Positions 1,869 to 50,459 are shown, counted from the stretch's first letter. The stretch is DNA of 64,000 nucleotides from an uncultured Actinomycetota bacterium (GCA_963735115.1 CAVTJR010000003.1:1352641-1416640), one strand, 5' to 3'. The notes: a model not told the origin generated them from the sequence alone. A program made the numbers and translations.

Positions 1869-2831
1869 ATGGAACTTCGCCAACTCAACGCCCTCGTCGC
1901 AATCGCCGACCACGGTTCTTTCTCCGCCGCCGCGGACGCCTTGCTCACCGTGCAGTCGAATGTCTCGGCTCACATCAAGAAGTTGGAGCGCGAGCTCAAC
2001 ACGACCCTCATCGACCGCTCGACAGGAAGCCTGACGAGCACCGGTGACCTCGCCGTTGCCCGGGCGAGGCGGATCCAGGCCGAGATCGACGCCCTCGAGG
2101 CCGACGTCCGAGCCCTTCAGCATGAGGTCGCCGGCACCGTTCGCATCGGCATCATCGGGACCACCGCCCGCTGGCTCGTCCCGCAACTGCTCGATGTCGC
2201 CCCCGCGAGGTTTCCAGACCTTCGGCTCATCTTCGTCGAGTCGACGACGACGACCCTCGAGTCCCAGCTCGACAGCGGTTACGTCGACATCGCCGTCCTC
2301 AACCTGCCCCATACCTCCCACGATCTGTTGCTCACGCCGCTGTTCGAGGAGGAGCTCGTGCTCGTGACGTCTCTCGACCACCCACTGGCTGCGGCCAAGG
2401 AGATCAGCGTCCGCCAACTGCGCGACATTCCCATCCTGCTGCCTTATCGAGGAACGGCCTTCCGCCAGGAGCTCGACGATGCCGTCGCCCCGCTCGGCAT
2501 GACGCTCGTTCCTCGCGCCGAGGTCGACTCCACGCGGCTCATCGCCTCGCTCACCTTCGAAGGCTATGGCCCGGCGATCCTGCCGGCGACGGCGGTGCCC
2601 AAGTACTTGGAGGATCGCTGGGCGACGGTGCGGATTCGCGGAATCCCCCCGCGGATCGTCGGCGTGGCCCAGCGTCCCCGCACCCTGCCTTCGGCACCCG
2701 TACGAGCCGCCCTCGACATGCTCACCGAGCTCGTCTTCGACATCGGGGTGCTGCCCTGGGGGCTGCGCCCTGTGCCGCCGGATCGGGTCAGGCCCGGCTC
2801 GGTCAGCCCCCGCCCGGCTCCCGCCACATGA
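1869..2831 (+). CDS. LysR family transcriptional regulator
   Basis: N-terminal HTH MELRQLNALVAIADHGSFSAAADALLTVQSNVSAHIKKLEREL, followed by a LysR substrate-binding-type region. Confidence 0.9.
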   Translation: MELRQLNALVAIADHGSFSAAADALLTVQSNVSAHIKKLERELNTTLIDRSTGSLTSTGDLAVARARRIQAEIDALEADVRALQHEVAGTVRIGIIGTTARWLVPQLLDVAPARFPDLRLIFVESTTTTLESQLDSGYVDIAVLNLPHTSHDLLLTPLFEEELVLVTSLDHPLAAAKEISVRQLRDIPILLPYRGTAFRQELDDAVAPLGMTLVPRAEVDSTRLIASLTFEGYGPAILPATAVPKYLEDRWATVRIRGIPPRIVGVAQRPRTLPSAPVRAALDMLTELVFDIGVLPWGLRPVPPDRVRPGSVSPRPAPAT

Positions 2832-31583: not shown

Positions 31584-31658
31584 CTCCCCGCCCGGAGCCC
31601 GCTCTCGGCCGGTGAGAGCGTCCGTCGTCTGCTCCGGCAGGCCAGGCCGCCGCTCGGA

Positions 31659-33629: not shown

Positions 33630-34414
33630 GCTCCGAAGATTACGGCTCCTTTGCTGGTGTACCAGTCGAGCACCTTCACGACGAGCCTTCCCGCCCGAAC
33701 GGCCGGATCGTCCTCCGCCAGCAGGCGGGCCGTTTCCCGCGATCCGGTCTCGTACAGGCCGATACCGCGCATGGACTCGCCGTCTTCGCCCGCAAGTGGG
33801 CCGGCCACACGCAGGTAGCCAGCCGCTCGCATCTTGGCGAGATGCCCTAGGTGCAGGCTCTGCAACGATGCCAGCTCCTCCTCGGACTCGTCGGGGAGAT
33901 CGTCGGGGCGGATGAGAAGGACGAGCTCATAGCGGTCGAACTCGGCGGGCGGCTCCCCGGGCTGCAGCACTTCCAGCGCGCGAAGCTGCTCCCGGTGAAG
34001 ATCCAGGTGGAAGCTTGCGTTGCCCTCGCAGAGAGACCCGATCGGCGTCGGCTGATCGACCACGACCACTCCCCCGTCCCGAATCATCGCCGGCACTGGC
34101 GTCGTCGCCTTCGCGCCGAGGGCGGTGTGGGCGGCGGCCAGGCGGGCGGCGGAGCGCTCGACAGCGTCGGCCAGCTCGCCGAGCCCGCCGGAAGCCAGTG
34201 CCTGCAGTCGGTCGTCGTCGACCGCTGGGGCGTTGTCGTAGCTCGGATGCTCCCCTGCCATCACCCGCTCGGCCACCTCGGCGATGAGGTCGTTGTTCAC
34301 AGCCACGTGGGCGGCGATGAGCCCTGCGGGCCAGCCCTCCTCCGGCGTGTTGAAGGAGCCCGCTCGCAGGCTCGCGATGAACGGGGCATAGGCGGCTTCG
34401 ATCGTGTCGCTCAT
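33626..34414 (-). CDS. DinB/MDMPI-like N-terminal domain fused to a YciI-like domain
   Basis: The start ATG at 34414 is preceded by GAGGAAGAGGAG. The sequence MSDTIEAAYAPF...HVAVNNDL... is DinB-like. The C-terminal part YELVLLIRPDD...HLGHLAKMRAAGYLRVAGPL...DDPAVRAGRLVVKVLDWYT is YciI-like. A 4-nt overlap links it to the GGDEF gene. Confidence 0.7.
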   Translation of the reverse strand: MSDTIEAAYAPFIASLRAGSFNTPEEGWPAGLIAAHVAVNNDLIAEVAERVMAGEHPSYDNAPAVDDDRLQALASGGLGELADAVERSAARLAAAHTALGAKATTPVPAMIRDGGVVVVDQPTPIGSLCEGNASFHLDLHREQLRALEVLQPGEPPAEFDRYELVLLIRPDDLPDESEEELASLQSLHLGHLAKMRAAGYLRVAGPLAGEDGESMRGIGLYETGSRETARLLAEDDPAVRAGRLVVKVLDWYTSKGAVIFGA

Positions 34415-34650
34415 CCGGTGCTCCTCTTCCTCGAGGTGGGAAGAGCCCGAGGCGGACGTTTCCTGGGCCCTGTTGACCTGGACACTGTCAAGCGGGCGGG
34501 ACCATGTCAATGGCCACTGACGAGCGGGCGGCGAGGACGTCGGTTCCGGCTCCGGGCGACCGCAACAGCTTGATGATCTGACTGAGCTACCGTTTGGGAG
34601 CGCCTCGGCCTTCCTCGGGTCGAGTGTTGGCGCAAAAGGAGGCGGTACCG

Positions 34651-35751
34651 ATGTCGCATGCAACGACGAGCCGTTCGGAACGGGCACGGCGGCGCAAGAG
34701 GCAGTCGGTGGCGGCGTCGACCCTGACTGCGGGCTTGCTCCTCGGTGCGCTCGTGGCGGCGAGTCCCGCCGGCGCGGCGCTTCGAAGCACCCATCCCAGC
34801 TCGAAGAGGCCAGGCGACTACCGCTTCAACGCCCCTGACGCAGCCGCAGTCGCCGGCGCGGACCTGTTCGTCGCCAACAGGATGGGTAACTCCATCACCG
34901 AGGTGAGGGCCTCCAACGGAGCCTTCGTCAGGCTCATCGAAGGCTCGAGATACCGCTTTGACGAACCAAGCGCCCTGCTCGTGCTCGGCAAGGACCTCTT
35001 CGTGGCGAACGCGAAGGCTGGCGTGACCGAGCTCGCCATCAGCAACGGTGCTCTCGTGCGAACATTCCGGGGCGCCAGGTACTTCTCGGGCGCGGTCGCC
35101 CTCGCCACGGACGGCTCCAACGTGTACGTCCTTAATGCCGGCGGGTCGGGCTCGGTCACCAAGCTCGCCGCGGGCACCGGGAAGATGAGCGTGGCCAAGT
35201 TCCGGTTCGATGTGCCGACAGCAATCGTCTCGGTTGGCACCGAGCTGTTCGTGACGAACAGCAGGGGCAACTCCGTCACCGAGATCGACGCCACCACCAT
35301 GACGTCGAACACCCTGAAAGCTTCCAGGTATCAGTTCGAAGAGCCGACCGGGATGGCCGTTGACGGCGGAGCCGTGTGGATCACCAACTACCTGGGCCCG
35401 ACGGTGACGGTGATCTCCGCCAGCACCGGCGAACTCGTGAAGGTGGTTCCGGACATGGACGGCAACCTGCCGAATCCCGGCCCGATCATCTTCGCCGACG
35501 GCAACTTCTATGCCGCCAGCCCGCCTGGGTCCTCCCCCATGATCACGAGGGTCCAACCAGGTAACACAGTGATGATGCCCTGGATGATGTGCAACACCAA
35601 CGGTCCCTACGAATTCAGCAATCCGCAAGCTTTGGCGGTCGCCGGGAGCACACTGTGGGTGGTCAACGAAGGAGGGCTCAATGCGCCCTACGGCCCGTCT
35701 CTGACGGAGATGAACGCCAGTTCCGGGGCCTTGATCCGGACGATCTCTTAG
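34651..35751 (+). CDS. Secreted beta-propeller repeat protein (NHL/YncE-like)
   Basis: AAGGAGG lies upstream of ATG 34651. The signal-like N-terminal part reads SRSERARRRKRQSVAASTLTAGLLLGALVAASPAGA. The repeated motif is ...LFVANxxGNSVTEI.... Confidence 0.75.
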   Translation: MSHATTSRSERARRRKRQSVAASTLTAGLLLGALVAASPAGAALRSTHPSSKRPGDYRFNAPDAAAVAGADLFVANRMGNSITEVRASNGAFVRLIEGSRYRFDEPSALLVLGKDLFVANAKAGVTELAISNGALVRTFRGARYFSGAVALATDGSNVYVLNAGGSGSVTKLAAGTGKMSVAKFRFDVPTAIVSVGTELFVTNSRGNSVTEIDATTMTSNTLKASRYQFEEPTGMAVDGGAVWITNYLGPTVTVISASTGELVKVVPDMDGNLPNPGPIIFADGNFYAASPPGSSPMITRVQPGNTVMMPWMMCNTNGPYEFSNPQALAVAGSTLWVVNEGGLNAPYGPSLTEMNASSGALIRTIS

Positions 35752-35861
35752 CTCGTAGTCAGGAGCCCTCGGGCGCCAGCCTCGGATCGTCTTTCTCTCG
35801 AGGTGTCGATATCGCCTCGCCTCGTTCGTCGTGATGGCAACGAGCGACTAGAGGAGGATCC

Positions 35862-36213
35862 ATGCGATACCTACTGATGATCTGTGGCGACGAGGCCGGC
35901 CTGGCGAGCTTGAGCCCGGAGGACGACTCCCGCATGTCGAGCGGGTACGAGGACTTCGGCAAGGAGATGGCTCAGCGCGGCGTCCTGCAGGGTGGCGAGC
36001 GCCTGCGGCCTTCAACCGACGCCACGACGGTGCGCGTGCGCAATGGCGACATCATCACGTCCGACGGCCCATTCGCCGAGACGAAGGAGCAAGTCGGTGG
36101 TTACTTCGTCGTGGACTGCAAGGATCTCGACGAGGCCATCGAGGTGGCGTCCAAGAATCCCCGGGGCACAATCGGGATCGATCGAAGTGAGGCCTATCTG
36201 GGAGATGACGTAG
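35862..36213 (+). CDS. DGPF / YciI-like protein; the canonical C-terminus is only reached by a +1 shift near 36153
   Basis: The sequence reads MRYLLMICGDE...SDGPFAETKEQVGGYFVVDCKDLDEAIEVAS in the 35862 frame. The family-typical end RIPGAQSGSIEVRPIWEMT plus stop (36211-36213) lies in the +1 frame, matching the tail of track ORF 35992..36213. Confidence 0.7.
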
Positions 36214-37448
36214 CAGCCGACGTCGCTACGGCCGTTGCCGATGCCTTCAGCGGCGAATGGGGACGGGTGGTTGCCACCCTGATCCGCGCTACGGGCGACT
36301 GGGACGTGGCCGAGGAGTGCACGCAGGATGCCTTCGCGCTGGCGCTGGAGCGATGGCCGCGCGACGGCATCCCGCGCAACACGGGTGCATGGCTCACAAC
36401 CGCAGCCCGCAACCGCGCCATCGACCGGGCGCGCAGGGCGGCCACCGGTGCGGCCAAGCTGCAGGAGGTGGCGGTCTTGTCGTCTCGTAACGACGCGCCG
36501 GACGATGAGGACAGCGGTGTCGCAGACGACCGGCTCCGGCTGATCTTCACCTGCTGTCACCCGGCCCTGTCGATCGAGGCGCAGGTCGCCCTCACACTTC
36601 GAACCCTCGCGGGGCTGACCACCGCCGAGATCGCACGAGCGTTCCTCGTGCCCGAGGCCACGATGGCCCAGCGCCTCGTGAGGGCGAAGCGAAAGATCCG
36701 CAACGCCGGCATCCCCTACCGGGTGCCGCCTGGCCACATGCTGCCTGAACGCACCGGAGCCGTTCTCGGCGTCCTCTACCTGCTGTTCAACGAGGGTTAT
36801 TCAGCCACTGCGGGCACCGACCTCATGCGCCAGAACCTCTCGGGCGAAGCCGTCCGGCTTGGCCGCGTTCTCGCCCGCCTCATGCCGGACGAACCGGAGG
36901 CGCTCGGCCTGCTCGCTCTCATGCTCCTCCACGACGGCCGACGCAACTCGCGCGTGGACGCGGCCGGCGATCTCATCCCCCTCGAGGAACAGGACCGCAG
37001 CCGCTGGGACCGGGCTTCGATCGACGAAGGACTAGCCGTGCTGGCCGGGGCGCTCCGTCGCGCCCGTCCGGGTCCGTACCAGGTGCAGGCCGCCATCGCC
37101 GCCTGCCACGCCACCGCCGCACGAGCGGACGAGACCGACTGGGTGGAGATTGCGGCCCTGTATGACCGGCTGGCGGTCATGGTGCCCTCCCCCGTGGTCG
37201 AGTTGAACCGCGCCGTCGCCGTCGCCATGGCAGAGGGACCTCGCGCCGGGTTGGTCCTCCTCGAGTCGCTGGAGGTCTCCGGTGCGCTCGCCGGATACCA
37301 TCTGCTTCCCGCCACGCGGGCCGACCTGCTCCGTCGCCTCGACCGCCCTGTCGAGGCGGCCGAGGCGTATCGCCAAGCGCTCGAGCAGGCGCCGACGGCG
37401 GCGGAACGCCGCTACCTCGCCCGTCGCCTGGCGGAGACGACGGGCTGA
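36198..37448 (+). CDS. ECF sigma factor with a long C-terminal TPR-like extension (ECF42-type)
   Basis: The sequence reads EWGRVVATLIRATGDWDVAEECTQDAFALALERWPRDGIPRNTGAWLTTAARNRAIDRARR...LAGLTTAEIARAFLVPEATMAQRLVRAKRKI, followed by ~230 aa of helical repeats. The start is unresolved: there is no ATG or GTG in frame between the DGPF region and GTG 36267, and CTG 36198 is possible. In the window the frame is continuous with 35862. Confidence 0.8.
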   Translation: MGDDVAADVATAVADAFSGEWGRVVATLIRATGDWDVAEECTQDAFALALERWPRDGIPRNTGAWLTTAARNRAIDRARRAATGAAKLQEVAVLSSRNDAPDDEDSGVADDRLRLIFTCCHPALSIEAQVALTLRTLAGLTTAEIARAFLVPEATMAQRLVRAKRKIRNAGIPYRVPPGHMLPERTGAVLGVLYLLFNEGYSATAGTDLMRQNLSGEAVRLGRVLARLMPDEPEALGLLALMLLHDGRRNSRVDAAGDLIPLEEQDRSRWDRASIDEGLAVLAGALRRARPGPYQVQAAIAACHATAARADETDWVEIAALYDRLAVMVPSPVVELNRAVAVAMAEGPRAGLVLLESLEVSGALAGYHLLPATRADLLRRLDRPVEAAEAYRQALEQAPTAAERRYLARRLAETTG

Positions 37449-37487
37449 GGGCCGACTGAACCTGCAGATGAGCTTTTCCGAAGGCGG

Positions 37488-39032
37488 TCAGCCGATGTCG
37501 ATCACGGTGGACTTCAGCGCCCTGCGTCCGCCGTTGCGGCTGACCGTCTGACCCGTGAACACGACCGAGGTCGAAGTGCCGAGCGAGTCCGTCACGACGA
37601 GGGTGATCGTGTACTTGCCCTTCTTGGCATAGGTGTGGCTGGTTGTCGGGCCTTGGCGGGACGTCGCCCCGTCGCCGAACCTCCAGCTGTAGCGGGCGAT
37701 CGTGCCGAACCAGGCCGAGGAAGAGCTGGCGTTGAGACTGACGGTGAGGCCGGAGACTCCCACGGTGAATTCCGCCCTGGGTGCCTGATCCGGTGTGATG
37801 GCAATGGCGGAGATCTGTGAGACGCCGTCGGCCAGCACGATCGGTGCGGACGGCGACGCCGTGGCGACGACCGCGGGCGCGATGACCGCCTCGGAAGCGC
37901 CACAGAAGAAGGCGGTTCCGCCGGCGGGCTCAACGGCGCCCGCGTCGACCTGCAACGGTACGTCAGTGGGGTCGACCAGTGGGATCCTGGTGACGGCATG
38001 GGAGCCGCTGAGCGTGACGCGGTCCGCTCCGTTGGCTGGCGATCCGAGCGCGGCGAAGGCGTAGGCACCGTTCGGCGCGATCGACAGGTCGATCGGCGAT
38101 GCGCCCAGCCTCACCTTCTTGCCCACCTTCGATGTCGCCAGATCGACGGGGACGAGGTCGTCGTCCAGGCTGTTGGCGACCCAGAGGGTTGTGCCGTTCG
38201 GCGTCACCGCCAGCGACGTCGGAAAGGCACCGACGCTGATCGGCTTGCCGGCCTTGCCGGTCCTCGCCGAGATCGGGGTGACGGTGCCGTTCTCGGCGCT
38301 GCTGACCCACACGGTGCGCCCGTCGGGGGTGATCGCGAGCCCTCCTGCGCCGGCGCTTTCGAGCGGGCCGACGCGGACCGCCTTGCCGGTGCTGCGGTTC
38401 GAGGTGTTGATCGCCACGACGCTGGCGTGCTGAAGGTTCACAAAACCGAGCACGTAGGCGTGCGACCCGTTCGGCGTGACCGCCACCGAGACCGGCTCGT
38501 TGCCGACCTTGATCGGGTTGCCGAGGGTTTGGTTCGTCAAGTCGATGGGCAGCACCTCGCGCGCCCACTCGACGGCGAGGTAGGCCGTCTGCCCGTTCGG
38601 GGTGATCGCCAGCTCACCGGCCGTCCCGCCGACGTTGTCTCCGATGGAGTCCGGGATCAGGATGCTCGCGACGATTGCGTCCGTCGCGACGTCGATCCCC
38701 ACGAGCTCGGTGGAACCCCCCGGGCTCCACAACGTCCATGCCGTCGGCTCCGCCGGCACGAGCGAGCTGCGCGGGACGCCGGCCACCGCCGGACCGGCCG
38801 TCAGGGCGACGACCAGCACGCAGGCGAGGGAGGCCGTTGCCACCCTCGCCGCCCGGACGCCGTACCTACCGGCTCCTCGTGGCCGCAGCCGCGGCGGCAC
38901 CTTGGTTGCTCTGTCCTGTTGCACCGTTTCTCCTTTGCTGGGGCGACGGAGTGCCGCCATCCGTACTTCGGTTTTGGAGCACTCTCGAGCGCTCAACGGG
39001 CCTCGGCCCTTCGTCGTCATCGCCGCGTTCAT
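37488..39032 (-). CDS. Secreted YVTN-family beta-propeller repeat protein with a C-terminal PKD domain
   Basis: The repeats are of the form ...AITPNGQTAYLA... / VAVTPNGSHAYV / LAITPDGRTVWV / LAVTPNGTTLWV. The C-terminal part is YSWRFGDGATS...HTYAKKGKYTITLVVTD (PKD). ATG 39032 overlaps the DUF4242 stop (ATGA). Confidence 0.85.
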   Translation of the reverse strand: MNAAMTTKGRGPLSARECSKTEVRMAALRRPSKGETVQQDRATKVPPRLRPRGAGRYGVRAARVATASLACVLVVALTAGPAVAGVPRSSLVPAEPTAWTLWSPGGSTELVGIDVATDAIVASILIPDSIGDNVGGTAGELAITPNGQTAYLAVEWAREVLPIDLTNQTLGNPIKVGNEPVSVAVTPNGSHAYVLGFVNLQHASVVAINTSNRSTGKAVRVGPLESAGAGGLAITPDGRTVWVSSAENGTVTPISARTGKAGKPISVGAFPTSLAVTPNGTTLWVANSLDDDLVPVDLATSKVGKKVRLGASPIDLSIAPNGAYAFAALGSPANGADRVTLSGSHAVTRIPLVDPTDVPLQVDAGAVEPAGGTAFFCGASEAVIAPAVVATASPSAPIVLADGVSQISAIAITPDQAPRAEFTVGVSGLTVSLNASSSSAWFGTIARYSWRFGDGATSRQGPTTSHTYAKKGKYTITLVVTDSLGTSTSVVFTGQTVSRNGGRRALKSTVIDIG

Positions 39033-39307
39033 GGCGCCGAGTAGAAGTAGGGGTCGAGAACGCGGATCTCGGTGATCTGGTCGACGGGCAGATGGTTGAG
39101 GGCTGCCGCCTGGCGCACGGCCTCCGGCGAAGGACCGTCGTAGATGCAAAACGACTTGCGACGGTCGGCGCTCACGTAGGAATGCAGCCAGGTCACGTCG
39201 GCGCGGGCGTTGCGCTCGGCGACGACTCGACAGGCTTCGTAGCCGTCGGCTGCCGCCGGCAGAGGGAGACCGTCGTCGAACGAGCGCTCTATGAGATAAC
39301 GGGGCAT
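39029..39307 (-). CDS. DUF4242 domain protein
   Basis: The sequence MPRYLIERSFDDGL...VTWLHSYVSADRRKSFCIYDGPSPEAVRQAA...ITEIRVLDPYFY shows the characteristic DUF4242 pattern. Confidence 0.85.
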   Translation of the reverse strand: MPRYLIERSFDDGLPLPAAADGYEACRVVAERNARADVTWLHSYVSADRRKSFCIYDGPSPEAVRQAAALNHLPVDQITEIRVLDPYFYSAP

Positions 39308-39435
39308 CGGGCCTCCTAGCCATTAATCGCCAGTGGTCACCGTACGATTGCGGTGCGCCCGCAACATCGGGGCCTGCCCCTATTTTTCCGAGTGCCTACC
39401 CTTAGGTTTCGTGCCCGTCCTCGACCCACGAGGCG

Positions 39436-42159
39436 CTATCGCCCGCCGGCCCCGCCCTCGGATTCGCCATCGCCCGAGAGAAACCCGCGCCTGCGTGCCT
39501 CCGCCAGCGCCGCCGTCCGGTTGCGGGCCCCGAGCTTCGACAGCACCGCACTCACGTGGTGCTCGACGGTCTTCACGGAGACGAACAACCGCTCGGCTAC
39601 CTCCGCGTTCGTCAAACCGTCTGCAACGAGGTAGAGCACTTCCAGCTCACGGCGGGTGAGCTGGGAAGGGTTGCGCTGGGTTTCTTTGCGAGCGCCGCGA
39701 GGCACGCTGCGGACACCGTGCTCCCGCAGGCGTCTTGCCGCCACGGTGGCTGCCAGGCGCGCGCCGAGGCGCTGCAGCTCCTCCACCGCCCCGCGGCGCT
39801 CCGCGTCGCCGCCCTCCTCGCTCCAGGCAAGCGCCACAGCGGCTTCATAAGGACAACCAATGGCGTGCCAGGCGTCCGCCGCCGACTGGGCGTCTCCGCA
39901 CAGCTCCAATCGCCAGGGCTCGGCCACAGGCGTCGTCACCTCCATCGGAGCGCCGGCGCGAGCGAGCCACACGTGGAGCTCGCCGGTCAACCAGGGCGAG
40001 GCGCGCTCCTGGGCGAGCCGCAGCGTCGCCGCCGCCGCTGGTACGGCGTCCTCCGACCGCACTCCAAGGAGCAGGCAGGCCTCAAGACGGGCGACTGCCA
40101 CCGGCCCGAGATACTGCACCTCTGCCTGCCGGCCTGCCAACTCCCACGCCTCGTCGAGCGCCTCCCACACGCCGGGGTCGCCGCGCAGCGTCCTCACCCG
40201 GCCGAGCACCGTGAGCGCTGACACACGTGTGTCCTGTGCTTCTGTCCGCCGGAGGCAGTCAGTGGCGGCGGCCGACGCCACCTCGAGATTCCCGGTCTCG
40301 AGATCGAGTCGCGCCCGCTCGGCACGCATCATCATTCCCAAAGCGTCCCGTCCGCGCTCGTCGCAGAAGGCGATGCCTTCGTCGAAGGCGGCACGGGCGA
40401 GCGTGTACTGACGGTGCAGGAGATGGACGACACCGAGGTTGAGCAGGCCCCTGCCGAACTGTTCCTCCTCGCCGGCGACCTTGGCGCGCAGGATCGCCTC
40501 TTCGAGGCGCCGCTGTCCGGCGGCGTTACCGGTTCGCTCGAATTCCGACGACCCGACAGTGACGAGCGAGTAGATCAAGATCGCCTCCTCGCCGAGCTCG
40601 TCAGCCAGCTCGACGGCGCGCTCCCCGTAACTGATGACGTCGTCGTACTCGTTCGCCCTCATGGCGATCCGCGAGCGGGTACTGAGGGCCATGGCGAGCT
40701 CCGGCCCGGCCGGAACAGCCTCGAGCACGGCGATGGCCGCATCTGCGGCCTGCCTTGCTTCCGTTCCGTGCCCGTACGTCAGCAGCACGCGAGAAAGCTG
40801 TTGCAGCGTGTCACCGGTTTGGGCGGCATCGCGGAGCCCCTCCCAGATGGCCAGTGCTCGTCGATAGAGCGCCAGCGCCGCCGAGTGCTGGTCGCTCACG
40901 TTGCACTCATAGGCTTGGCGGCTCAGCAAACCGGCGAGCTCAGCCGGCAGAAGGCGACCGTCGCCAGCTTCGACTGCCGCCGCTAAATGGGCGGCGGCTT
41001 CTCGGTGTGCACCCAGCTCAGCGGCACGGCGCGCCGCCAATGGGGCGAACTCGAGCAGGGCAACAGCGTCGCCCGCGCCGATGGCATGGTGGACGACTCG
41101 TGGCAAAGCCCGGTCGTCCCCACGGGAACGCAACCACGCCAACGCCTGTCGGTGCAACATTGCCCGACGGGCCGCCGGCAGGTCGGATTCGATGGCGCTG
41201 CGGGCGAGCTCGTGGCGAAACCGCAGCCCGAACCCGTCGGCGACGAGCATGCCGCGCCGCTGACATTCGTCGATGGCAGCCTCCGAGTCTGGTCGCATCG
41301 TCAGCAGGAGATCGAGCTCGATGTGGAGAGGGACGACGGCAGCCGCCTCGAGCACAGCCCGGGCGCCGGGAGACAGCCGTGACGCCCGAGCGAGCACGGC
41401 GTCCCGAACCGCCTCCGGCAACTCCTGCCCGCCCGCTGCCAACACCTCCGTGACGAAGAAGGGGTTGCCTCCCGTTCGGCGACACAGATCCGCGGCGTCA
41501 ACAGCGTGTCCGGCAGCGAGGGCGGTGACGGCCGCCTGGGAGAGGGGGTGGAGAGACAGGCGCACAAGGCTGTCGGCACCGGACAGCTCCCCGAGCAGGG
41601 CGCGCAGCGGGTGGTGCTCGTCGAGTTCGTCGTTTCGATACGTGCCCAAGAGGACCGCATGGGTCGATCCGATCCGACGGGCGAGGTAGCGGATCAAATC
41701 GAGTGTGGCCGCGTCCGCCCACTGCAAGTCCTCGAGCACGACGAGGCAAGTGGCCCGCGACAGCAGCTCGAGATAGGCGCCGAACACTTCATGTCGGCGT
41801 GGTGCTCCTTCGAGGATCTGCAGGAGATTGGCGTCGCCGACCTCGGCGGCAATGTCACGGAACGGACCGAGTGGCCGCGGTGTCGCCAAGGCGTCGCAGG
41901 CTCCAATGAGCACGGAGATGCCTTGTTCCTGCGCATCGCGGGAGGCCACATCGGCGAGGGCGCTCTTTCCGACGCCCGCCTCACCGCCGACGAGCACGAG
42001 CGACCCGCGGCCCTCTGACGCAGCCGTCAGCCGCCCGGCAATGGCGGCAGCAGGCTCTTCCCGTTCGAGCAGCACGGTGGCCACGTCTCGATCAGCCTCG
42101 TGCCCAGACGGCGCCAGCGGGCGCCGGACGAACGACCACTCGCTCGCACGGGCGAGCAC
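39436..42159 (-). CDS. LuxR-family regulator with N-terminal AAA ATPase and TPR region (LAL/MalT-like STAND)
   Basis: The Walker A region is [13 protein letters not shown], followed by a long helical-repeat middle. The C-terminal part is [44 protein letters not shown]. Confidence 0.9.
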
Positions 42160-42348
42160 GCATTGCGGTGGTCTTCATCGACTCGCCTTACCTCAGGATC
42201 CTTCGGACGGCAGGGGTGATTGGCCAGAACCATCGCGGACGCATAGAGCGTATCTGCCGAGGAAGGTGCGACCCGGCTTGCGTATCTCCGACTACCAACT
42301 CGGTGACAGGTCCGCCCGGGCCGCCCGGCGGCGCTGCCGGCAGTCTCC

Positions 42349-42387
42349 GATCTCTCGCGACATCCGTCTCCGGTGTCGCGAGAGATC
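42349..42387 (-). terminator. Perfect 14-bp inverted repeat just 3' of tRNA-Arg
   Basis: GATCTCTCGCGACA (42349-42362), an 11-nt loop, then TGTCGCGAGAGATC (42374-42387). It sits 4 nt from the tRNA 3' end. Confidence 0.5.
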
Positions 42388-42391
42388 ACAG

Positions 42392-42468
42392 TGGCGCCCC
42401 CGGCACGACTCGAACGTGCGACCGTCTGCTTAGAAGGCAGCTGCTCTGTCCAACTGAGCTACGGGGGC
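42392..42468 (-). tRNA. tRNA-Arg (anticodon TCT), CCA encoded
   Basis: The reverse complement GCCCCCGTAGCTCAGTTGGACAGAGCAGCTGCCTTCTAAGCAGACGGTCGCACGTTCGAGTCGTGCCGGGGGCGCCA folds as a cloverleaf. The anticodon loop is CTTCTAA. Confidence 0.95.
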
Positions 42469-42611
42469 ATTCATACAGCTTGTGACCTGCGGGTTTCAGG
42501 CTATCTCCCGATCGATCCATGCTTGCACACCGCTCCGACAGAGGTTGCCCTTTGCGAAAGAGAGCCAACGAGGGCCAGTTTGGTGGCGCCAGGAGCGCGG
42601 CGCCCCGACCC

Positions 42612-45600
42612 TCAGTCCGGTACCTGCTCGAGCCTGGCCGCATGGTTGAGCCGCTCCAGGAAGGGCTTGGCTCCCAGCTCGGTGAAGATGTCCCGGGCTT
42701 CCTTGGCCATCGTGGCGTCCGGGTGATCGGGACCGAGGAGCAGGACGCGGTCGAGCTCGCACAGGGCCAGGTCGAGAGTACAGTCGAGCGCCCGCCACGC
42801 CTCGACCGCCTTTCGGTAGGTCTCGGCCGCCTCCTGCACTCGACCTTCGAGCGCAGCCAATCCGGCCTCCATCGTCAGGCGCTCGGCCGTCATCCACCGG
42901 CCGCGAAAGGGCCTCATCGCCAAAAGAGCCTCTTGCACACCGACGGTGTCACGCAGCCACAGGCAGGCGCGCGCGCGAATCGCTAGAGCATGCCGACTGT
43001 TTGTCCCAGCCGGTTCGAGGGCCACGGCATCGCCCGCCTCCCGCTGGGCCGCGTCGAGGTCACCGGCCGCCAGGCTCACCAGAGAGCGATCCACCAAGTA
43101 CGTGGTGCGCGCGGCCAGGAACTCGCTCGACGCCGCCACTTGCTCACCGGCCTCTTTGAGGGCGGCCGCGGCCGTGGCGGACTCTCCGGTGAGCGCCGCC
43201 AGCATCGCCTTGCGGATGGGCAACGTGACGCGCCTTACAGACGTGGGCTCTCGCTCTTCCAGCTCAGCGATGGCGGTCCGTGCGCGACCCCAGTCGCCTA
43301 GGAAAAGCGATCCTTCGGCAGTGTCGCCCAGCTTCCACATCTCGAGGAGTCGGTCCCCAGCCCGCCTCGCCAGATCAGCCGCCTCCATCGTGGCGAACAG
43401 CGACTCTCTGGGGTTTTCTTCGAAGACAAGGAGGCCCAGAAGACTCTGAGCCAGAGCGAGGTCTCGGAGGGAACCGGCCGCCTCGGCGAGGGCGACATGC
43501 CCTCGAGCGAGTATGACGGCCTCGAGGTGGCGACCGAGGTTGTACAAGGCGTACGACTTGGAGACGATCGTCTGTGCCACGAGGGCAATGTCGTCGAGCT
43601 GCTCGGCGAGGACGAGGGCGGTCTCGGACCACTCGAGGGCGCGCGCGGGCGAGCCCGAGTTCGCGTGAGCGACCGTCAGCTCGCAGGCGAGACCAGCCCT
43701 GACGCGCTCCTCGCCTTCGTCGCCTAGGGCCTCGAAGGCCCGCTCGACCCGCTCGATGGCCTCCGAGTAGCGGTCCAAGCCGCCGAGCGCGCGAGCCAGC
43801 GCGGCGGTGGCACGACCGGCGGCATCGTGGTCGCCGGCCGCGTCGTAGTAGGCAATGGCCTCCTCGAGACGGGCCATCGCCTTTTCGTAGGCCATCGCGC
43901 GCCCTCCAGCCTCGCCGGCGGCCTCGAGGAGCAAGGCGTGCTCGGGCCCGGCCGGTGTCATCTCGAGGGCCTGTTCGAAGAAGGCGAGCGCCTGCTCGGG
44001 CGAGCCGAGGGAGAGGGCGCGCTTTCCTGCCCGCGAGAGCCACTCACGGGCACCGACGGCGATCTCGGTGGCCTCGGTTTCCGGGGCGGCCCGCTGTGCC
44101 TCGACGTAGTGGGCGGCCACGAGGCCGGTGAGCTCCTCGTCGCCGAGGGATTCAAGGTGGCGAGCGACTGCGAGGTGCTTGGCGCTGCGGTCGTGCCTCG
44201 CGAGGGTGGCAGCGGCAACCTCGGCGATGATCCCCTGCACGAAGCCGTGCTGGCCTCGCTGGGGTGAGCGGGGGGCGGTCTCGAGGTAGAGGAACTCCTT
44301 TCGCACGAGGTCCCGCAGCTCAGGCTCGAGGCTGGCGGCGGTCTCCCCGCCGTGCAGGGCGGCCAGGGCCTCGGTCGGAAAGGTCCGCCCGACGACGGCG
44401 GCGTCCTGCAGGAGGGAGCGCTCCTCTGGCGAGAGGGCGTCGAGGCGGGCGGCGACAAGGGCGTGCAGGGTGTCTGGGATCTGGAGAGAGCCAAGTTCGC
44501 CAACAAGGCGGTAGCTGCCGTCCTCGCGCACGAGGACGCCCCGGTCGACGAGCATGCGCACCGTCTCGACGCCGTAGAGGGGGACGCCCTCGGAGCGTGC
44601 CCGCACGGCTTCGACCACCTCGTCCGGCACACCTTCGACGAGGCCGTGGAGGAGGTCGCCCATTTCGGTCTCCGAGAGCGGCTCGAGGTGAAGGGCGGCG
44701 AAGCTGTGCTGCCCGGCCCCCCAGGCGGGCCGACTGTCGAGCAGCTCGGGTCGGGCGAGGGTCACGACCAGGATCGGGTGGTTTGAGGACCACTCGAGGA
44801 TCGACTCGACGAAGTCGATGAGCCCCGCATCAGCCCACTGCAAGTCCTCGAAGACCATGACGGTGGTCGCCGTGTCGGCGACGGCCTCGAAGAAGCTCCG
44901 CCAGGCGGAGAAGAGCTCGTTGCGGTCGCCCGGCGGGGCCTCACCGATGCCGAGGAGGTGGGCGAGGGACGCCCCCACCCAGCGGCGGTCGCGTTCGTCA
45001 GCGACGAACTCGGCCACACAAGCCGAGAGCTTGGCCCTCGAGGAGCCGGGCTCTTCTGACTCGCCGATGCCCGCGCGCATGCGCACCATCTCGCCAAGTG
45101 CCCAGAAGGTGATGCCGTCGCCGTAGGCGGGCGAGCGTCCCTCATGCCAGTGAACCGGCTCGACGAGTCCGTCGGTGTACTTGGCGAACTCCCACACGAG
45201 CCGGGTCTTGCCGATGCCGGGGACACCCATGACCGACAGCAGTCTTGCGCGGTGCTCGCGTTCGGTCGCCGCCAAGAGGTCCTTCATGAGCCGGAGCTCC
45301 TCGGCCCGGCCGACGAAGGGGGCTTCGAGCGCTTCCGAGCGCCCTACGCCTCGTCGCTGGGCGACGACGCGAAGCGCCCGCCAGGCGGTGACGGGCTCGG
45401 ACTTACCCTTCAGCTGAAGCTCCCCCACCTCCGAGAAGCCCCCAGACGGCCATGACGGCGTCACCGATGAACTTCTCCACCGTGCCGCCGTAGCGGGCGA
45501 TGACCCGCTCGGCACGCCCGAAGTAGTCCGAGAGCAGCTCGCGTACCTCCTCCGGGTCGCGCTTTTCCACGAGCGGTGTGAAGCTGACGAGATCTACGAA

Positions 45601-45804
45601 GAGCACCGAGCAGAGACGCCGCTCGGCGACAGGACCCTCAGCAGCCTCGGGCGCGGAGACAGCTGCCCCGCAGTCAACACAGAAGCGGTTGTCCGCCTCG
45701 AGGGGTGCCCCACAGGCCGGGCAGGCGGCGGCGAGCGAGCCGCCGCAGTGCTTGCAGAACCGTTTCCCCTCGGGGGTCTCGCCTCCACAAGCTGGGCAGC
45801 GCAT
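42612..45804 (-). pseudogene. Zinc-ribbon - class III adenylate/guanylate cyclase - AAA ATPase - TPR protein, with the cyclase domain internally deleted and frameshifted
   Basis: GAGGAGG lies upstream of ATG 45804. The sequence MRCPACGG...CPACGA...LCSVLFVDLVSFTPL...GGTVEKFIGDAVMAVWG then changes frame directly into GFSEVGELQLKGKSEPVTAWR (the cyclase C-terminal end). It continues ...VMGVPGIGKTRL (P-loop) with a long TPR-like tail (track ORFs 45403..45852 and 42612..45515). Confidence 0.75.
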
Positions 45805-45995
45805 ATCTACCTCCTCTTCGAAGGCTACGACGCTGCCGGTAGTACCGCACACCCTGCCGGCTGTGACGCTGTCCGGCTTTGGGGCTTCAGGTGCGCCCGA
45901 CTCGTGATGTCCACCTCAACGACAGGAGACAAGTGTGCGACCTTCGCTCGCGTCTGTCCTGGTCAAACACTAAGTAGTAGCCGCTCAGCCCGGAG

Positions 45996-46026
45996 TGCTT
46001 AGAAGGCAGCTGCTCTGTCCAACTGA
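45996..46026 (-). repeat. 31-bp exact copy of an internal tRNA-Arg segment (D-loop through anticodon arm)
   Basis: tgcttagaaggcagctgctctgtccaactga is identical to 42427-42457 in the same orientation. The flanking bases differ on both sides. Confidence 0.9.
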
Positions 46027-46262
46027 AGGTCGCTATGCCGCCATCAGAGCGGCGTCCTCGACTTCAGGGCTGACTCGGGTCGGGCAAGTTCTCGGGGCTC
46101 GCCTTTGCCCGTGACGGCACCCTGCTCGCGGTTGCCCAGGAGAACGCTTTGGCGACCGTCTGGTCGCTCCAGTCACGGAGGGAGACCGAAGCCCTGGTAG
46201 GACGGGCGGCCTCGATCGTATCCAGCCGCGACCGCAGGTAACTGGGCCACGCGGATAGTAAA

Positions 46263-46303
46263 GAACCCGACTCGGGAAGGCACTGCCCTCCCGAGTCGGG
46301 TTC
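46263..46303. terminator. Strong hairpin, likely a bidirectional terminator (SBP gene on the minus strand)
   Basis: GAACCCGACTCGGGA ... TCCCGAGTCGGGTTC form a perfect 15-bp stem. On the minus strand it is followed by TTTACTATCC. It lies 31 nt after the SBP stop. Confidence 0.6.
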
Positions 46304-46333
46304 TCTCGTCAAGTCTTGACTGCTAGATCCCGT

Positions 46334-48343
46334 CTACGACTTGAAGTACCAGTACTCGGGATTGAGGTTGTCGAGGGCGTTGACCGGAAGCACTCCACCG
46401 ATCCTGTTGGAGACCTCGACGGCGGTTGCCGCCAGTGGCTGCCAGATGACGGGCAGCTGCTGGGCGAGGTAGTCCTCCCACTGGTAGAAGACGCTCAGGC
46501 TCGAGTTCTCGTTCGTCTCCCGGATCAAGGTGTCGTTCTGGGCGTTCGAGTAGTCGCCCTGGTTCGAGCCGGCACCGGTGGCGAAGATCTCCTCGCCGGT
46601 GGGCAGGTAGTCGGGCGAGTAGAGCCAACCGCCGCCCCAGTTCGCCATGTCCCATGCGTGGCAGGCCGCCGTGGCGGTCGGGTAGCAGGAGACGGCGTCC
46701 TTGAGGACGTTGTCGAACGGCTCAGCCTTGAGGCTGACCTTGATGCCCTCCTTGGCCCACTCGGACACCTCGTAGTCGACCGCCTGCGTGAGCGACTGCG
46801 TGCCGCTGGCATACACCTCGGTGAAGGTGAGCGGCGTGCCGCTCGGGATGCCTGCGCCGCACTCACCGGCGCCTGACCCGGGCTTCGTGCACGTCGTCGT
46901 GCCTCCCGGGACGACGTTCCAGCCGTTGGCCTTCAACGTGGCCGCCGCCGTCGTGGGGCTGAAGGGGTAGGGACCACCCGTCTTCAGCTCGACGCCGTGG
47001 GCGAAGTTGTTCGGTGGGTAGACGGGCGCCGGGCCGTAAGTGGGCACGCCGTAGCCCTTGAAGTAGGTCGAGATGATGCCCGTCTGGTCGACCAGCTCCT
47101 GCAGCACCTGGCGGAAGTACAGCTGCTTGAAGACCGCACCGGCGTGACCGCCCGCTCCCAGCGTGGAGTTGAAGTTCTCCGGGAAGTAGTTGATCTGCCA
47201 GGACTCGGTCTGCGTGATCCCGTACGTGCTCGTAAGGGCGGTGGCGTTGGCCCCCGCCGTTGTCGGCCCGAGGTTGGCCGCCTTCTGCGGCAGGTTCTGC
47301 GAAGGCAGGTAGCCGACGTCCGGAGCGGTGCTGCCTCCGGCGGCGAGGGCGTTGTACTCGGCGGTGTCGGAGGTGTAGGGCACCTCGACGAACTCGGAGA
47401 GGATCGGCTTCTGCGGTCCGCTGTAGGCCGGGTTCGGCACGAAGGTCGACTGCCCGGTGGAGGCATCGAATGCGCTCAGCTTCCAGGGACCGTCGACGCC
47501 GTCTGCCCACAGCTTGTTGGAGGCATAGGTGGCAAGGTCACCGGACATCTGCGGGTGCTTGGAGGTGGCGTTGTTGTCCGTGTCGAAGGTCCACACGGCC
47601 ACGCAGGCTTTCGTCACTGCCTTGCTCGGGAGGCTGGCGGTCTTCGTGGCAACCCCGCAACCACCGGACCCAGGGGCGGCCGTCAAGGAGGTGATGTCCC
47701 AGGCTTCGGCCATCGGGTAGATCTGCGAGAGCTCGTTGTACTGGAACCACGTCGTGCTGAAGGTGCCGTCGAGGTTGATGACGACGGTGTTGCCCGTGGG
47801 TCCGTCAGGCGCCGAGTAGCTCTTGATGTTGCCCGGCCACTGGTTCGGGCCAGGAGCCGTGCCGGCCCAGTTGGCGGACTCGGCTTCGATCATGTTCAGC
47901 CAGAAGATGACGCTCTGGGCGTCGACGCTCTGGCCGTCGGCGAACTTCCAGGGCTTCAAGGTGATCGTGATGGTCTTGTCGCCGTTCGACCACACGGGTG
48001 CGTTGCCGGGCGAGAGCGAGTAGTCCACGTCCGGGGACGTGCTCGTGGGGGAGCCGAACCAGTAGAGCGGCCGGTACAGGAGGAACTCGAACTGCTCTTC
48101 GTTCGCCACCGAGAAGAACTGCAGACTCGAGAACGGGAAGATCCAGTCGGGTGTCACCTGCGGCGCCATCGCCCAGTAGGCCGTGCCACCCTTCAGATGG
48201 CTCGAAGGCGTCGAGGTCGCCGACGGGCTCGTGGTGGTCGTTGACGAGGACGTGCTGCTTCCGCAGGCCGCCAGCACGAGCGCGCCTACGGCGAGCCCTG
48301 CTCCTATTTTCCAGGCTGCTCTCAGTCTCGGTTTCCGTTGCAT
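46334..48343 (-). CDS. ABC transporter substrate-binding lipoprotein, family 5 (peptide/nickel type)
   Basis: The signal plus lipobox is GAGLAVGALVLAACGSS, followed by an S/T linker. The body reads ...FEFLLYRPLYWFG.... No permease or ATPase genes lie adjacent. Confidence 0.85.
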   Translation of the reverse strand: MQRKPRLRAAWKIGAGLAVGALVLAACGSSTSSSTTTTSPSATSTPSSHLKGGTAYWAMAPQVTPDWIFPFSSLQFFSVANEEQFEFLLYRPLYWFGSPTSTSPDVDYSLSPGNAPVWSNGDKTITITLKPWKFADGQSVDAQSVIFWLNMIEAESANWAGTAPGPNQWPGNIKSYSAPDGPTGNTVVINLDGTFSTTWFQYNELSQIYPMAEAWDITSLTAAPGSGGCGVATKTASLPSKAVTKACVAVWTFDTDNNATSKHPQMSGDLATYASNKLWADGVDGPWKLSAFDASTGQSTFVPNPAYSGPQKPILSEFVEVPYTSDTAEYNALAAGGSTAPDVGYLPSQNLPQKAANLGPTTAGANATALTSTYGITQTESWQINYFPENFNSTLGAGGHAGAVFKQLYFRQVLQELVDQTGIISTYFKGYGVPTYGPAPVYPPNNFAHGVELKTGGPYPFSPTTAAATLKANGWNVVPGGTTTCTKPGSGAGECGAGIPSGTPLTFTEVYASGTQSLTQAVDYEVSEWAKEGIKVSLKAEPFDNVLKDAVSCYPTATAACHAWDMANWGGGWLYSPDYLPTGEEIFATGAGSNQGDYSNAQNDTLIRETNENSSLSVFYQWEDYLAQQLPVIWQPLAATAVEVSNRIGGVLPVNALDNLNPEYWYFKS

Positions 48344-48479
48344 GTGGCTCAGTTACCTCCCTGATCTCAACGACGCTGTTGGCACCGGCGCGCTCAGGTC
48401 CCCCTTCTACGGGAAACCACAGCCCGCGGCACTGTAGCGCATCCGTAATGTTTCGTACATCGAATGGCACCGAGACGGA

Positions 48480-48640
48480 GCGAGCTGAAGCTGGCTAACC
48501 GGGGCCGAACCGCCCACCTCCGGGATCAACCGACTACGAAATGTCGGGCATCAACCGAACTTCCCGGCCACCTCGGTGACGCTGAACCCGTCACGAATGA
48601 CGCCCATGACGGCGTAAACCCATCGGACGCAGCGGGTATC
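48480..48640 (-). mobile_element. Highly degraded IS481-like transposase 5' remnant
   Basis: The minus-strand translation RWVYAVMGVIRDGFSVTEVAGKFG(stop)...RSRLIPEVGGSAPV parallels the N-terminal HTH region of the better-preserved remnant at 49943-50235. The DNA is also similar (gccacctcggtgacgctgaacccgtcacgaatgac vs gccgcctcggtgacggtcattccgtcccggatgac). Confidence 0.4.
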
Positions 48641-48977
48641 CGTTCAAAGCCGCTGACGAGGCGCTGATCTTCGGAGATTGGGCCTGTCAGGAGTGCCCGA
48701 TGACAGGTCAAAGCTCCACTTCAGCGGTTGCGGAGCGCGCTGCCGAGGCCGCGGCGACCTCCGTAGCAACCGCTTTTATCGTCGATGGCAGTTGCCCGCG
48801 CACTCACACACAGGGCGGGCACACCACCGACAGTTCGTCGCGGCGTCCACCCTCGAGCCAGAGCTTCGAGGATTGTGTTTGCTCATCCATGGCCGCAGCC
48901 TCGCCGAGGGGTGTATCACTGCCATTCGCCAGGGATCCGGCCCAGTTTCCGAGACTCACCCGATCGGTACCCAGCGA

Positions 48978-49693
48978 TCAGGACAGCGTGACCATGCCTG
49001 TGCCCGTCAGGCTGGGCAGACCCGACGACCTGCAGGTGCTGAGGACTCCCTTCTCGGTCATGTCCGTGTAGGAGGATGCACTGGAGCCCGCGCCGTGGTC
49101 ACTGCCTGCAAAGGAACCCGTCACGGAGGCCGTGCCCCCGCTGTTGGGGAACACGAACCCGACGTCACCAGCGCTGTTGGTCACGATGCGGTGGCCCGAG
49201 AAGGTGACCATGCTGTTCGCAACAGAACTCGGGGTCCACCGCGCCGTCCACGTCGGGGGCCCCGACGCGGAGTTCGACGTCCCGAGAACGCGGCAGGCGT
49301 TGGACGCGAGGTGAATCGTCAGCGTGGAGGTGGCGCCGGTTACCTTGGAGACGTTCGACCCGCTCGTCGTGCAGGTGGAAGCTGCGATCGTGATCGTCAC
49401 CGTCTCAACAGGGCTGGTGCCACTCTTTTGCAGTGGCGGGTCGAACGTCACCGTGCCGGTTCCGGAGCAGCTGATGCCGCCCGTGGCGACCGTCGGCGCA
49501 CTCGTCGACGAACTAGTGGACGTCGAACTGCTCGTGGCAAGCGGGACGTGGAAGTGGACGTGGAAGTGGACGTAGAAGCTGTCGTCGGCTTGTGGCTACT
49601 CGAACAGGCCGACATGAAGACCAAGGAGACCACCAGGACGACGCCGGCTACGGCCAGAGACCGGTCTCGCAATGAGAATCGCATACGAGGCAT
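48978..49693 (-). pseudogene. Lipoprotein gene with a frame break after a Thr/Ser-repeat linker
   Basis: The signal/lipobox MRFSLRDRSLAVAGVVLVVSLVFMSACSSS plus TSTSTSTS lies in the frame of ORF 49448..50107. The body (PLATSSSTSTSSSTSAPTVATGGISCSGTGTVTFDPP...) lies in the frame of ORF 48978..49451. The shift occurs near 49530-49545, next to a 12-bp tandem repeat. Confidence 0.5.
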
Positions 49694-49942
49694 TGTCTGC
49701 CGCAGCCTCGGCTCGATCCAGGGGCTTTCGTCACATGAGACACGAACTCCAGGGCCGCGAGTCCAGCACCAGAGTTTGACGGTATGCCGCCGTGGACTGA
49801 AAGCAGACTCAGATGACGTGGCTGATCGTGGGGACACAGAACGACGGAGGCACCGGACTCGCGGGTCGGCGCGTATTCGGCGACTGGCGAAGGCGGCGAG
49901 GCGGGAGACGACGAAGCGCGCCGGTGTGGCGGGCGGGGAGGC

Positions 49943-50235
49943 CCGCTCCAGCTGGTGCCGGAGGCGCAGCGGCCGCCAGCTCGGATGTTGCCGACGCAGT
50001 TCCAAGACGCGGGCCTCGAACACCGCCGGCATCTGATGCGGGACGCGTTTAGGCCGATGCGAGCGGTCGACGAGGGCTTCGAGGCCGCCGGCCTCGTAGC
50101 GCGACATCCATCAGTAGAGCGTCTGGCGGCTGACTCCGTACTTCTCTGCCGCCTCGGTGACGGTCATTCCGTCCCGGATGACCGCGACGACGGCGTCGTA
50201 GCGCTGCTCCACTTTGGTGAGCTCCTTGATCACTC
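49943..50235 (-). mobile_element. IS481-like transposase N-terminal remnant (in-frame stop; catalytic core absent)
   Basis: From GTG 50235 the sequence reads VIKELTKVEQRYDAVVAVIRDGMTVTEAAEKYGVSRQTLY(TGA at 50111-50113)WMSRYEAGGLEALVDRSHRPKRVPHQMPAVFEARVLELRRQHPSW.... Similarity to transposases is lost after ~95 aa and no DDE region follows. Confidence 0.7.
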
Positions 50236-50385
50236 CGGCCACCTCCCTCCCACTCGGAGGCGGAGGACGGTGGGGCCGAGGTGTCAAGCGTCAGCTGTTA
50301 CAGGGTCACGGATCACCCGTTACTGCGTTCCACATCACGCGTTATCGATCTGTGACAGATCAGGCGTGGTCTTACAGCTGATCGG

Positions 50386-50459
50386 TGCGCCCCCTGGGAC
50401 TCGAACCCAGAACCTGCGGATTAAGAGTCCGTTGCTCTGCCAAATTGAGCTAGAGGCGC
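50386..50459 (-). tRNA. tRNA-Lys (anticodon CTT)
   Basis: The reverse complement GCGCCTCTAGCTCAATTTGGCAGAGCAACGGACTCTTAATCCGCAGGTTCTGGGTTCGAGTCCCAGGGGGCGCA folds as a cloverleaf. The anticodon loop is CTCTTAA. Confidence 0.9.

Follow-up and report, generated by a model that had tools for sequence, protein, structure and literature searches.

The window considered here is a stretch of 64,000 nucleotides from an uncultured Actinomycetota bacterium (GCA_963735115.1 CAVTJR010000003.1:1352641-1416640). It contains an intact tRNA-Arg(TCT) gene and, 3.5 kb away on its 5' side, an exact 31-bp copy of the internal part of this gene, hereafter the relic. The two copies bracket a single gene, encoding a zinc-ribbon/cyclase/AAA_16/TPR protein with a STAND NTPase (hereafter the cyclase-STAND gene), which is broken into two halves. 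The relic lies at a rearrangement junction inside a ~7.9-kb 'junkyard' interval, the contents of which vary between strains. This can be followed with near-identical contigs of the same Acidimicrobiales species, issued from peat metagenomes: the NCBI metagenome-assembled genome (MAG) contigs JBEKFR010000050.1 and JBKQIU010000039.1, plus contigs from JGI and ENA. Contigs are designated below by working labels (L001 and so on), and the coordinates of the features are collected in Table 1.

The repeated sequence (TGCTTAGAAGGCAGCTGCTCTGTCCAACTGA) is the longest exact repeat of the window, the next longest being 26 and 21 bp. Of the tRNA, it takes in the D-loop with the 3' side of the D-stem and, in the anticodon arm, the 5' arm, the loop, and three of the five bases of the 3' arm. 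The relic is in the sense orientation on the minus strand, like the copy inside the gene, and the tRNA-Arg(TCT) sequence itself is identical across all same-species contigs. The exact, same-orientation repeat described in the initial annotation was recovered by a repeat scan and by ARAGORN and Rfam analyses, and the abrupt loss of identity reported on both of its sides was confirmed by alignment of the flanks. In local alignments, neither the missing 5' part of the tRNA (11 nt) nor its missing 3' part (35 nt) matches the corresponding flank of the relic better than random segments of the window do (P=0.46 and P=0.19, respectively). A gap-tolerant chain of the 3' part (GAAGGTCGCA...CGTT...CGAGTCGgGC) can be traced 50-100 nt downstream of the relic (P=0.04), which is too weak to build on.

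The relic is not called a tRNA by ARAGORN, nor by Rfam, even at E<=1, and the minimum-free-energy structure of its region is no better than that of shuffled sequences (z=0.17), with loss of the anticodon hairpin. A degraded tRNA at this position was rejected, on the basis of the negative ARAGORN and Rfam results and of the non-significant flank alignments (P=0.19-0.46); the degraded tandem tRNA, which the initial annotation had named as a contrary case, leaves no convincing sign in these flanks. An origin of the 31-mer as a spacer of clustered regularly interspaced short palindromic repeats (CRISPR) was also rejected, as the two flanks of the 31-mer differ from each other and no other repeats are found nearby.

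A chimeric join at a short repeat was considered, and three Logan k=31 short-read contigs (L058-L060) do end at 42456, inside the repeat. Nevertheless, both relic junctions are reproduced in at least four independent assemblies (JGI and NCBI MAGs), in which L001, L018, L053 and L039 read through them (L018 and L052 being one record). The repeat is, therefore, real, and the probability of an assembly artefact is practically negligible.

The initial annotation stated that the disrupted zinc-ribbon/cyclase/AAA/TPR gene stands alone between the two copies, and this holds. It is found as two open reading frames (ORFs) on the minus strand, at 45852-45403 (double zinc ribbon and start of the class III cyclase) and 45515-42612 (AAA_16 and TPR). 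Its intact homologs are ~1165-1175 aa long, with the domain order DZR, Guanylate_cyc, AAA_16, TPR, and share 60-72% identity with the window copy. The closest intact homolog is carried by L016 (72% aa and 78% nt identity), the closest intact orthologs overall reaching 71-72% aa identity. The C-terminal part of the window copy is 78% identical in nucleotides to L016 10434-13254, and the N-terminal part is 79% identical in amino acids to residues 1-136 of the protein P0002. Where these parts meet, inside the cyclase domain, L016 has 279 bp (10155-10433) and the window a single nucleotide; the 278 bp lost on balance shift the reading frame, and the Pfam Guanylate_cyc match spans only positions 9-67 of the 183 of the profile. 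The domain order is the one known for the zinc-ribbon/class III adenylate cyclase/AAA_16 STAND/TPR regulators of Actinomycetota, but the window copy is short of ~93 cyclase codons in addition to being frameshifted. The uninterrupted ORF with complete Guanylate_cyc, AAA_16, and TPR domains, by which a functional gene would be recognized, is absent from it.

Comparison of strains offers a view of the decay itself. The net 278-bp deletion is present in all same-species contigs, and additional lesions are restricted to some of them: a 529-bp deletion (44824-45352) in L001 and L053, and a 1-bp deletion at 42925 in L055 and L056. The density of variable sites amounts to 5.25 per kb in the pseudogene, against 0.6-1.5 per kb in the adjacent genes (13 kb in total), and ten of the changes among strains are non-synonymous and six synonymous. 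As the strain contigs were found via exact identity of the LuxR or solute-binding protein (SBP), these two genes are biased to few changes, and the background rate was, therefore, also taken from 29435-39435. The cyclase-STAND gene is dead, still decaying, and drifting neutrally.

The intact orthologs closest to this gene are located elsewhere. In L016 and L072, the gene order is an Opp/Dpp-type ATP-binding cassette (ABC) operon, the cyclase-STAND gene, and a DUF222 gene, and the ortholog of L017 sits in yet another context. No tRNA gene is found near the intact orthologs in any of these three contigs, and the 31-mer is absent from L016 and L017. From the stop codon (42612), nucleotide homology between the window and L016 runs to ~20 bp before the start codon (45831) and no further. 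Since the closest intact orthologs lie elsewhere, and without a tRNA, the window copy is a relocated, gene-sized piece in a foreign context and not native here. An intact gene in the same arrangement in relatives, the other contrary case named in the initial annotation, was not encountered, the intact gene of distant relatives being at another locus without tRNA.

These results bear on a possible role of the relic as an RNA element. Its sense orientation, 143 bp upstream of the start codon, would suit a mimic of the D-loop and anticodon arm in the 5' leader of the cyclase-STAND gene, serving as a decoy or sensor for a tRNA-binding factor. However, the gene to be served is dead and decaying, its intact orthologs do without a nearby tRNA or, in the two contigs mentioned, without the 31-mer, and the relic region has neither a better fold than its shuffles, nor a promoter-like site that could be found, nor an Rfam match, so that such a function is a very remote prospect. 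The relic is almost certainly a non-functional rearrangement scar. Nothing at the locus is functional today, the intact tRNA being the only selected feature.

On its other side, the relic is separated by a 45-60 bp stretch from a piece of a TIR-WD40-type gene. This is the WD40-like fragment noticed in the initial annotation, and its nature was substantiated: window positions 46087-46217 share 75% nt identity with L022 3111-3241 and 63% aa identity with residues 534-579 of a 948-aa protein combining TIR_2 and WD40 domains. The piece is an internal relic and not a gene end; therefore, deletions ending inside genes have occurred right at this locus.

Such deletions are what a first alternative requires, in which a second complete tRNA-Arg(TCT) gene stood here, issued from a tandem or segmental duplication or from the Campbell-type insertion of DNA with a tRNA-Arg of its own, and, being redundant, was trimmed by two independent deletions to positions 12-42. 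A piece that reaches neither end of the tRNA is what random deletions would leave, and the region does hold deletions that end inside genes (the WD40 relic, and the 278-bp and 529-bp losses). The collinear trace of the tRNA 3' part downstream of the relic, and a TAGC located 5 nt upstream of it, could also be residues of the former gene. Nevertheless, two deletion endpoints are needed within one 77-bp gene, the similarity of the flanks is not significant by local alignment, and a 100% identical core beside unrelated flanks is unlike gradual decay. The coincidence of the 3' edge of the relic with the anticodon stem is left unexplained, and no tandem tRNA-Arg genes occur in any relative examined. 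This alternative is rather unlikely.

The proximity of another truncated gene piece also brings to mind filler DNA, templated or captured during the repair of a double-strand break or a stalled fork. The 31 nt would have been taken from tRNA-Arg, 3.5 kb away, either by template switching (microhomology-mediated break-induced replication, MMBIR) or by Ku/LigD end joining, a pathway common in Actinomycetota, and would have sealed the cyclase-STAND segment to the truncated WD40 gene. The relic is short, internal, and sharp-edged, is within the typical size range of filler DNA, and lies 45-60 bp from the WD40 piece, that is, at or beside an illegitimate junction. Its source is close by on the same replicon, from which template switches usually draw. 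However, the 480-bp junk region contains no other local copies, matches of at least 12 nt being at background level, random templating would hit a tRNA gene only ~1% of the time, and the position of the relic edge at the anticodon stem is not accounted for. An 11-mer common to tRNA-Arg and the WD40 relic (gcgaccgtctg) could be cited in favour of this mechanism, but it explains neither junction by its position and encodes the conserved WD motif ATVW. Filler DNA is, on balance, a decidedly unlikely origin. The 11-mer is located at 42418-42428, across the left edge of the repeat, and at 46152-46162 in the WD40 relic; it is probably shared by chance, and constitutes a possible microhomology for illegitimate recombination.

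The boundaries of variation between strains are given by the tRNA genes rather than by the repeat. L054 shares 99.88% identity with the window over 29435-42490; beyond this point, which is ~22 nt upstream of the tRNA-Arg 5' end, the two sequences are entirely different. This strain keeps an intact tRNA-Arg, and its different DNA, known over 410 bp, matches nothing to the right of the relic; it looks like the N-terminus of a divergently oriented alpha/beta-hydrolase-like ORF, as judged by eye from the translation. It is the sole alternative allele seen at tRNA-Arg, and, over these 410 bp, it is not an empty site. At the opposite end, L042, L044, and L045, from the same species, depart from the window sequence at 50371-50383, where tRNA-Lys has its 3' end; there, L042 carries a complete gene for a 386-aa tyrosine integrase (1383-2543, minus strand), the first part of which is also present in L044 and L045. 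The conserved flanks are more than 99.8% identical between strains. The initial annotation had suggested checking relatives for the presence or absence of 42469-45995; the variable unit is, instead, the whole ~7.9-kb interval (42470-50371) from the 5' end of tRNA-Arg to the 3' end of tRNA-Lys, and not 3.5 kb. Because a tyrosine integrase island is found at tRNA-Lys in the same species, together with IS481 relics in the window, this interval is a proven integration hot spot.

Flexible (replacement) genomic islands are bounded by conserved tRNA genes. The tRNA-Arg/tRNA-Lys interval resembles them in that its contents differ between strains while its flanks are nearly identical, although its alternative alleles are known as fragments only (410 bp at one end, the integrase at the other), and homologous replacement is putative here. 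Neither the segment between the two 31-mer copies nor the scan of the window's large ORFs yielded an integrase, in agreement with the initial annotation; no other mobility gene was found among these ORFs, and the window holds no tRNA-Lys or tRNA-His fragments that could delimit islands.

These data do not support 42469-45995 as an insertable or excisable unit between att-type repeats. The relic is ruled out as the att repeat of any simple excisable island, because it is internal to the tRNA, and a crossover in a 31-bp attP would leave neither copy intact; the L054 allele, over the part known, is not an empty site either. Exchange between the two present copies would cost tRNA-Arg its 5' end, and so destroy it, and the arrangement is, therefore, frozen. 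The proposal of an old integration, deletion, or duplication scar with subsequent decay, made in the initial annotation, is retained as regards the dead gene, the fragment without detectable function, and the strain-variable hot spot, but an att-bounded unit is not supported.

Displaced tRNA-gene (tDNA) fragments were reportedly treated by Williams, in 2002, as marks of integrated genomic islands. The favoured reading, although tentative, is that the relic is a fragment of this kind: a displaced 5'-type piece of a tRNA gene, issued from an integration into the anticodon arm and later trimmed by deletion. DNA carrying the cyclase-STAND copy would first have entered tRNA-Arg by site-specific recombination at its anticodon arm, the configuration being the rare '5'-fragment' one. 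The incoming DNA would have provided a new 5' half of the tRNA together with a promoter, and the old 5' half (positions 1-42) would have been pushed 3.5 kb upstream as a direct repeat. Later deletions would then have taken positions 1-11, the recombinase gene, and other cargo, and were probably the same events that reduced the TIR-WD40 gene to ~130-170 bp.

Several observations are consistent with this sequence of events. In the anticodon stem, it is within the 3' arm that the relic has its 3' edge (42|43), for which the chance is ~5/77 positions, and an att identity block centred on the anticodon would end in this arm. The hot-spot character of the locus fits as well. Strain variation beginning at the 5' end of tRNA-Arg is to be expected, because all DNA 5' of the crossover would be imported. 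The duplicated segment lies within a tRNA gene, although such a gene accounts for ~1% of the sequence nearby, and this speaks for a process specific to tRNA genes over random templated repair. Finally, the relic lies upstream of tRNA-Arg in the same orientation, which is the 5'-type island configuration accepted by Islander (PMC4383910).

Relative to the tRNA gene, Islander accepts 5' fragments when they are upstream and 3' fragments when they are downstream, and rejects internal fragments (PMC4383910). With the islands mapped in this way, the locus shares an intact tRNA with a cognate, directly oriented partial copy a few kb off on the 5'-type side, an edge at the anticodon stem, and strain variability. 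It differs from them by its internal fragment (positions 12-42), the lack of an integrase and, among the alleles seen, of an empty site, and a cargo limited to one dead gene of chromosomal type. Orientation, configuration, and length agree with what Islander demands, whereas the fragment is not a tRNA-gene end and no integrase accompanies it; the locus is, therefore, better regarded as a flexible island that holds the damaged relic of a tRNA gene than as a mapped island.

The integration scenario faces several objections. Since positions 1-11 are gone, the relic fails the internal-fragment filter of Islander, and the extra deletion has to end inside a 42-bp target, which is improbable a priori. 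Neither the interval nor the large ORFs of the window include an integrase, and no arm-type repeats are found, the two 143-bp spacers sharing no k-mers of at least 7 nt. In IMG/VR, no attP-like partial copy was detected: the 31-mer has 0 hits, and, of the 72 hits of a 20-mer, 70 are in full tRNA genes and 2 in tRNA stretches interrupted where a contig ends, many of the 20-mer hits belonging to phage tRNA arrays. The cargo consists of one gene with a host-like G+C content, and the L054 allele, the only alternative seen, is not an empty site over its 410 known bp. Lastly, 5'-type islands represent only ~4% of mapped tRNA-gene islands (159/3919; Islander, PMC4383910).

Partial tRNA genes have been described as remains of mobile-element integration or of other processes (van der Gulik et al. 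2023, PMC9897764). The relic is, likewise, a non-canonical tRNA piece, a by-product of rearrangement, and a usable marker of past events. However, the examples of that study are mostly att sites of recognizable 9-23-kb elements, or a CRISPR spacer, whereas the element is unrecognizable here and no CRISPR repeats flank the relic.

Table 1. Features of the tRNA-Arg/tRNA-Lys interval and its borders (window coordinates).
Feature	Position	Strand	Evidence or remark
Intact tRNA-Arg(TCT) gene, CCA encoded	42392-42468	-	ARAGORN; Rfam tRNA 64.7 bits
Repeat copy 1, inside intact tRNA-Arg (its positions 12-42)	42427-42457	-	Exact 31-mer
Spacer, 143 bp: tRNA-Arg 5' flank and pseudogene 3' flank	42469-42611	-	Strain-allele boundary at ~42470-42490
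Pseudogene, C-terminal part: end of cyclase domain, AAA_16 STAND NTPase, TPR region	42612-45438	-	Pfam AAA_16 2e-16, TPR_12
Deletion junction in cyclase domain	45438-45440	-	blastn against L016 and L017
Pseudogene, N-terminal part: double zinc ribbon and first third of class III cyclase domain	45440-45852	-	Pfam DZR 5e-12, Guanylate_cyc 5e-8
Spacer, 143 bp: pseudogene start to tRNA relic	45853-45995	.	No match outside same-species contigs
Repeat copy 2: relic of tRNA-Arg positions 12-42, unrelated flanks	45996-46026	-	Exact 31-mer
Internal relic of TIR-WD40-type gene, about one WD repeat	46072-46240	+	Homology over 46087-46217
Orphan SBP_bac_5 gene cassette, promoter included	46266-48460	-	Gene 46334-48343; terminator hairpin 46262-46304
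Second short helix-turn-helix (HTH) relic, 1.3 kb from IS481 relic	48551-48616	-	
IS481-type transposase N-terminal relic, in-frame stop	49847-50233	-	Pfam HTH_28 2e-17, HTH_32, LZ_Tnp_IS481 1e-9
tRNA-Lys(CTT)	50384-50459	-	ARAGORN; 3' end is the other boundary of the variable interval; followed by tRNA-His

Within the interval, the SBP_bac_5 gene is intact, but without permease or ATPase genes. Its block is 97.7% identical in nucleotides to L019 (98% in amino acids, metagenome scan), and identity stops sharply at both ends of the cassette (46266 and 48460). In L019, the gene order is carB, pyrD, pyrF, SBP, permease, and the flanks differ from those of the window on both sides, so the window gene appears to be a relocated or duplicated single-gene cassette. 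The L019 comparison yielded no empty site for the relic. Synteny of GTDB representatives examined via the SBP gene (80-83% relatives), where permease genes follow SBP and no tRNA is present, was set aside, these contexts being paralogous and uninformative.

The last 1.8 kb before tRNA-Lys are suggested to be themselves an insertion remnant, because window positions 48519-48563 are similar to the sequence that natively flanks tRNA-Lys on its 3' side in a 79% relative (L051 9459-9503). This flank (L051 9400-9510; window 48519-48575) contains imperfect ~22-nt tandem motifs (GTGTCGGG.ATCAACCG), which could be protein-binding sites. A 452-aa ORF at 48678-50036 on the plus strand has no Pfam match and may be spurious. 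At 49543, the window differs from L001 and L041 by a 22-bp indel in an 11-nt tandem repeat, which encodes, on the minus strand, (Thr-Ser)n after a lipoprotein-like signal peptide; the indel shifts the frame. In the strains of L042, L044, and L045, a PstS-like protein is identical to that of the window, and the different DNA next to tRNA-Lys takes the place of the IS481-relic region; in L042, the integrase gene is followed by AT-richer DNA. Many short-read contigs end within tRNA-Lys.

On the 3' side of tRNA-Arg, at 37488-42159, lies a trio of genes encoding a LuxR-type STAND regulator, a 92-aa SCO4226-like protein, and a PKD/beta-propeller protein. The trio is kept in relatives whose LuxR is 76-79% identical (L062-L071), with varying upstream neighbours (AlaX-like, Peptidase_A4, RNase_T). 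No tRNA-Arg is found near the trio in L062-L071, this species being the only one to have it there. As the relatives of the trio have no tRNA-Arg nearby, the ancestral context of tRNA-Arg was not recovered from them. At 36157, the window shows a 1-bp indel relative to L018, L053, and L054, in a YCII/sigma-70/DUF6596 ORF region. Two genes annotated elsewhere as 116 aa and 393 aa are merged there, which could result from a frameshift or a sequencing error.

Outside the interval, the other short exact direct repeats returned by the window scan are located at 8594/9631 (21 bp) and 18064/18124 (26 bp), the latter pair, 60 bp apart, being possibly a tandem coding repeat. In L022 (84-4841), the 948-aa TIR_2-WD40 protein adjoins a protein with a C-terminal region called cyclase-like by eye; tRNA-Gln and a homolog of SBP lie next to them, and the genes of this neighbourhood may serve defence or signalling.

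For annotation purposes, the relic should be labelled neither as a tRNA nor as the att site of an excisable island, and a single pseudogene should take the place of the 149-aa and 967-aa ORFs. The region between 42.47 and 50.37 kb is best treated as a flexible, decaying island, which breaks short-read assemblies and can make MAGs chimeric. The locus corresponds to ordinary genome wear and to a known kind of genomic scar, and indicates no new system or mechanism. It is possible, and proposed here with reserve, that a promoter-replacing integration on the 5' side, at the anticodon arm of tRNA-Arg(UCU), left the relic as its footprint in Acidimicrobiia, a class of event that would be as yet undescribed for this lineage; if this is true, 5'-side integration brought in a STAND-type signalling gene here, instead of phage or conjugation functions. 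More generally, the locus offers a small, clean example of how gene relics pile up at tRNA-flanked hot spots in uncultured peat Acidimicrobiales, and of how population-level contigs can demonstrate the ongoing decay of a pseudogene.

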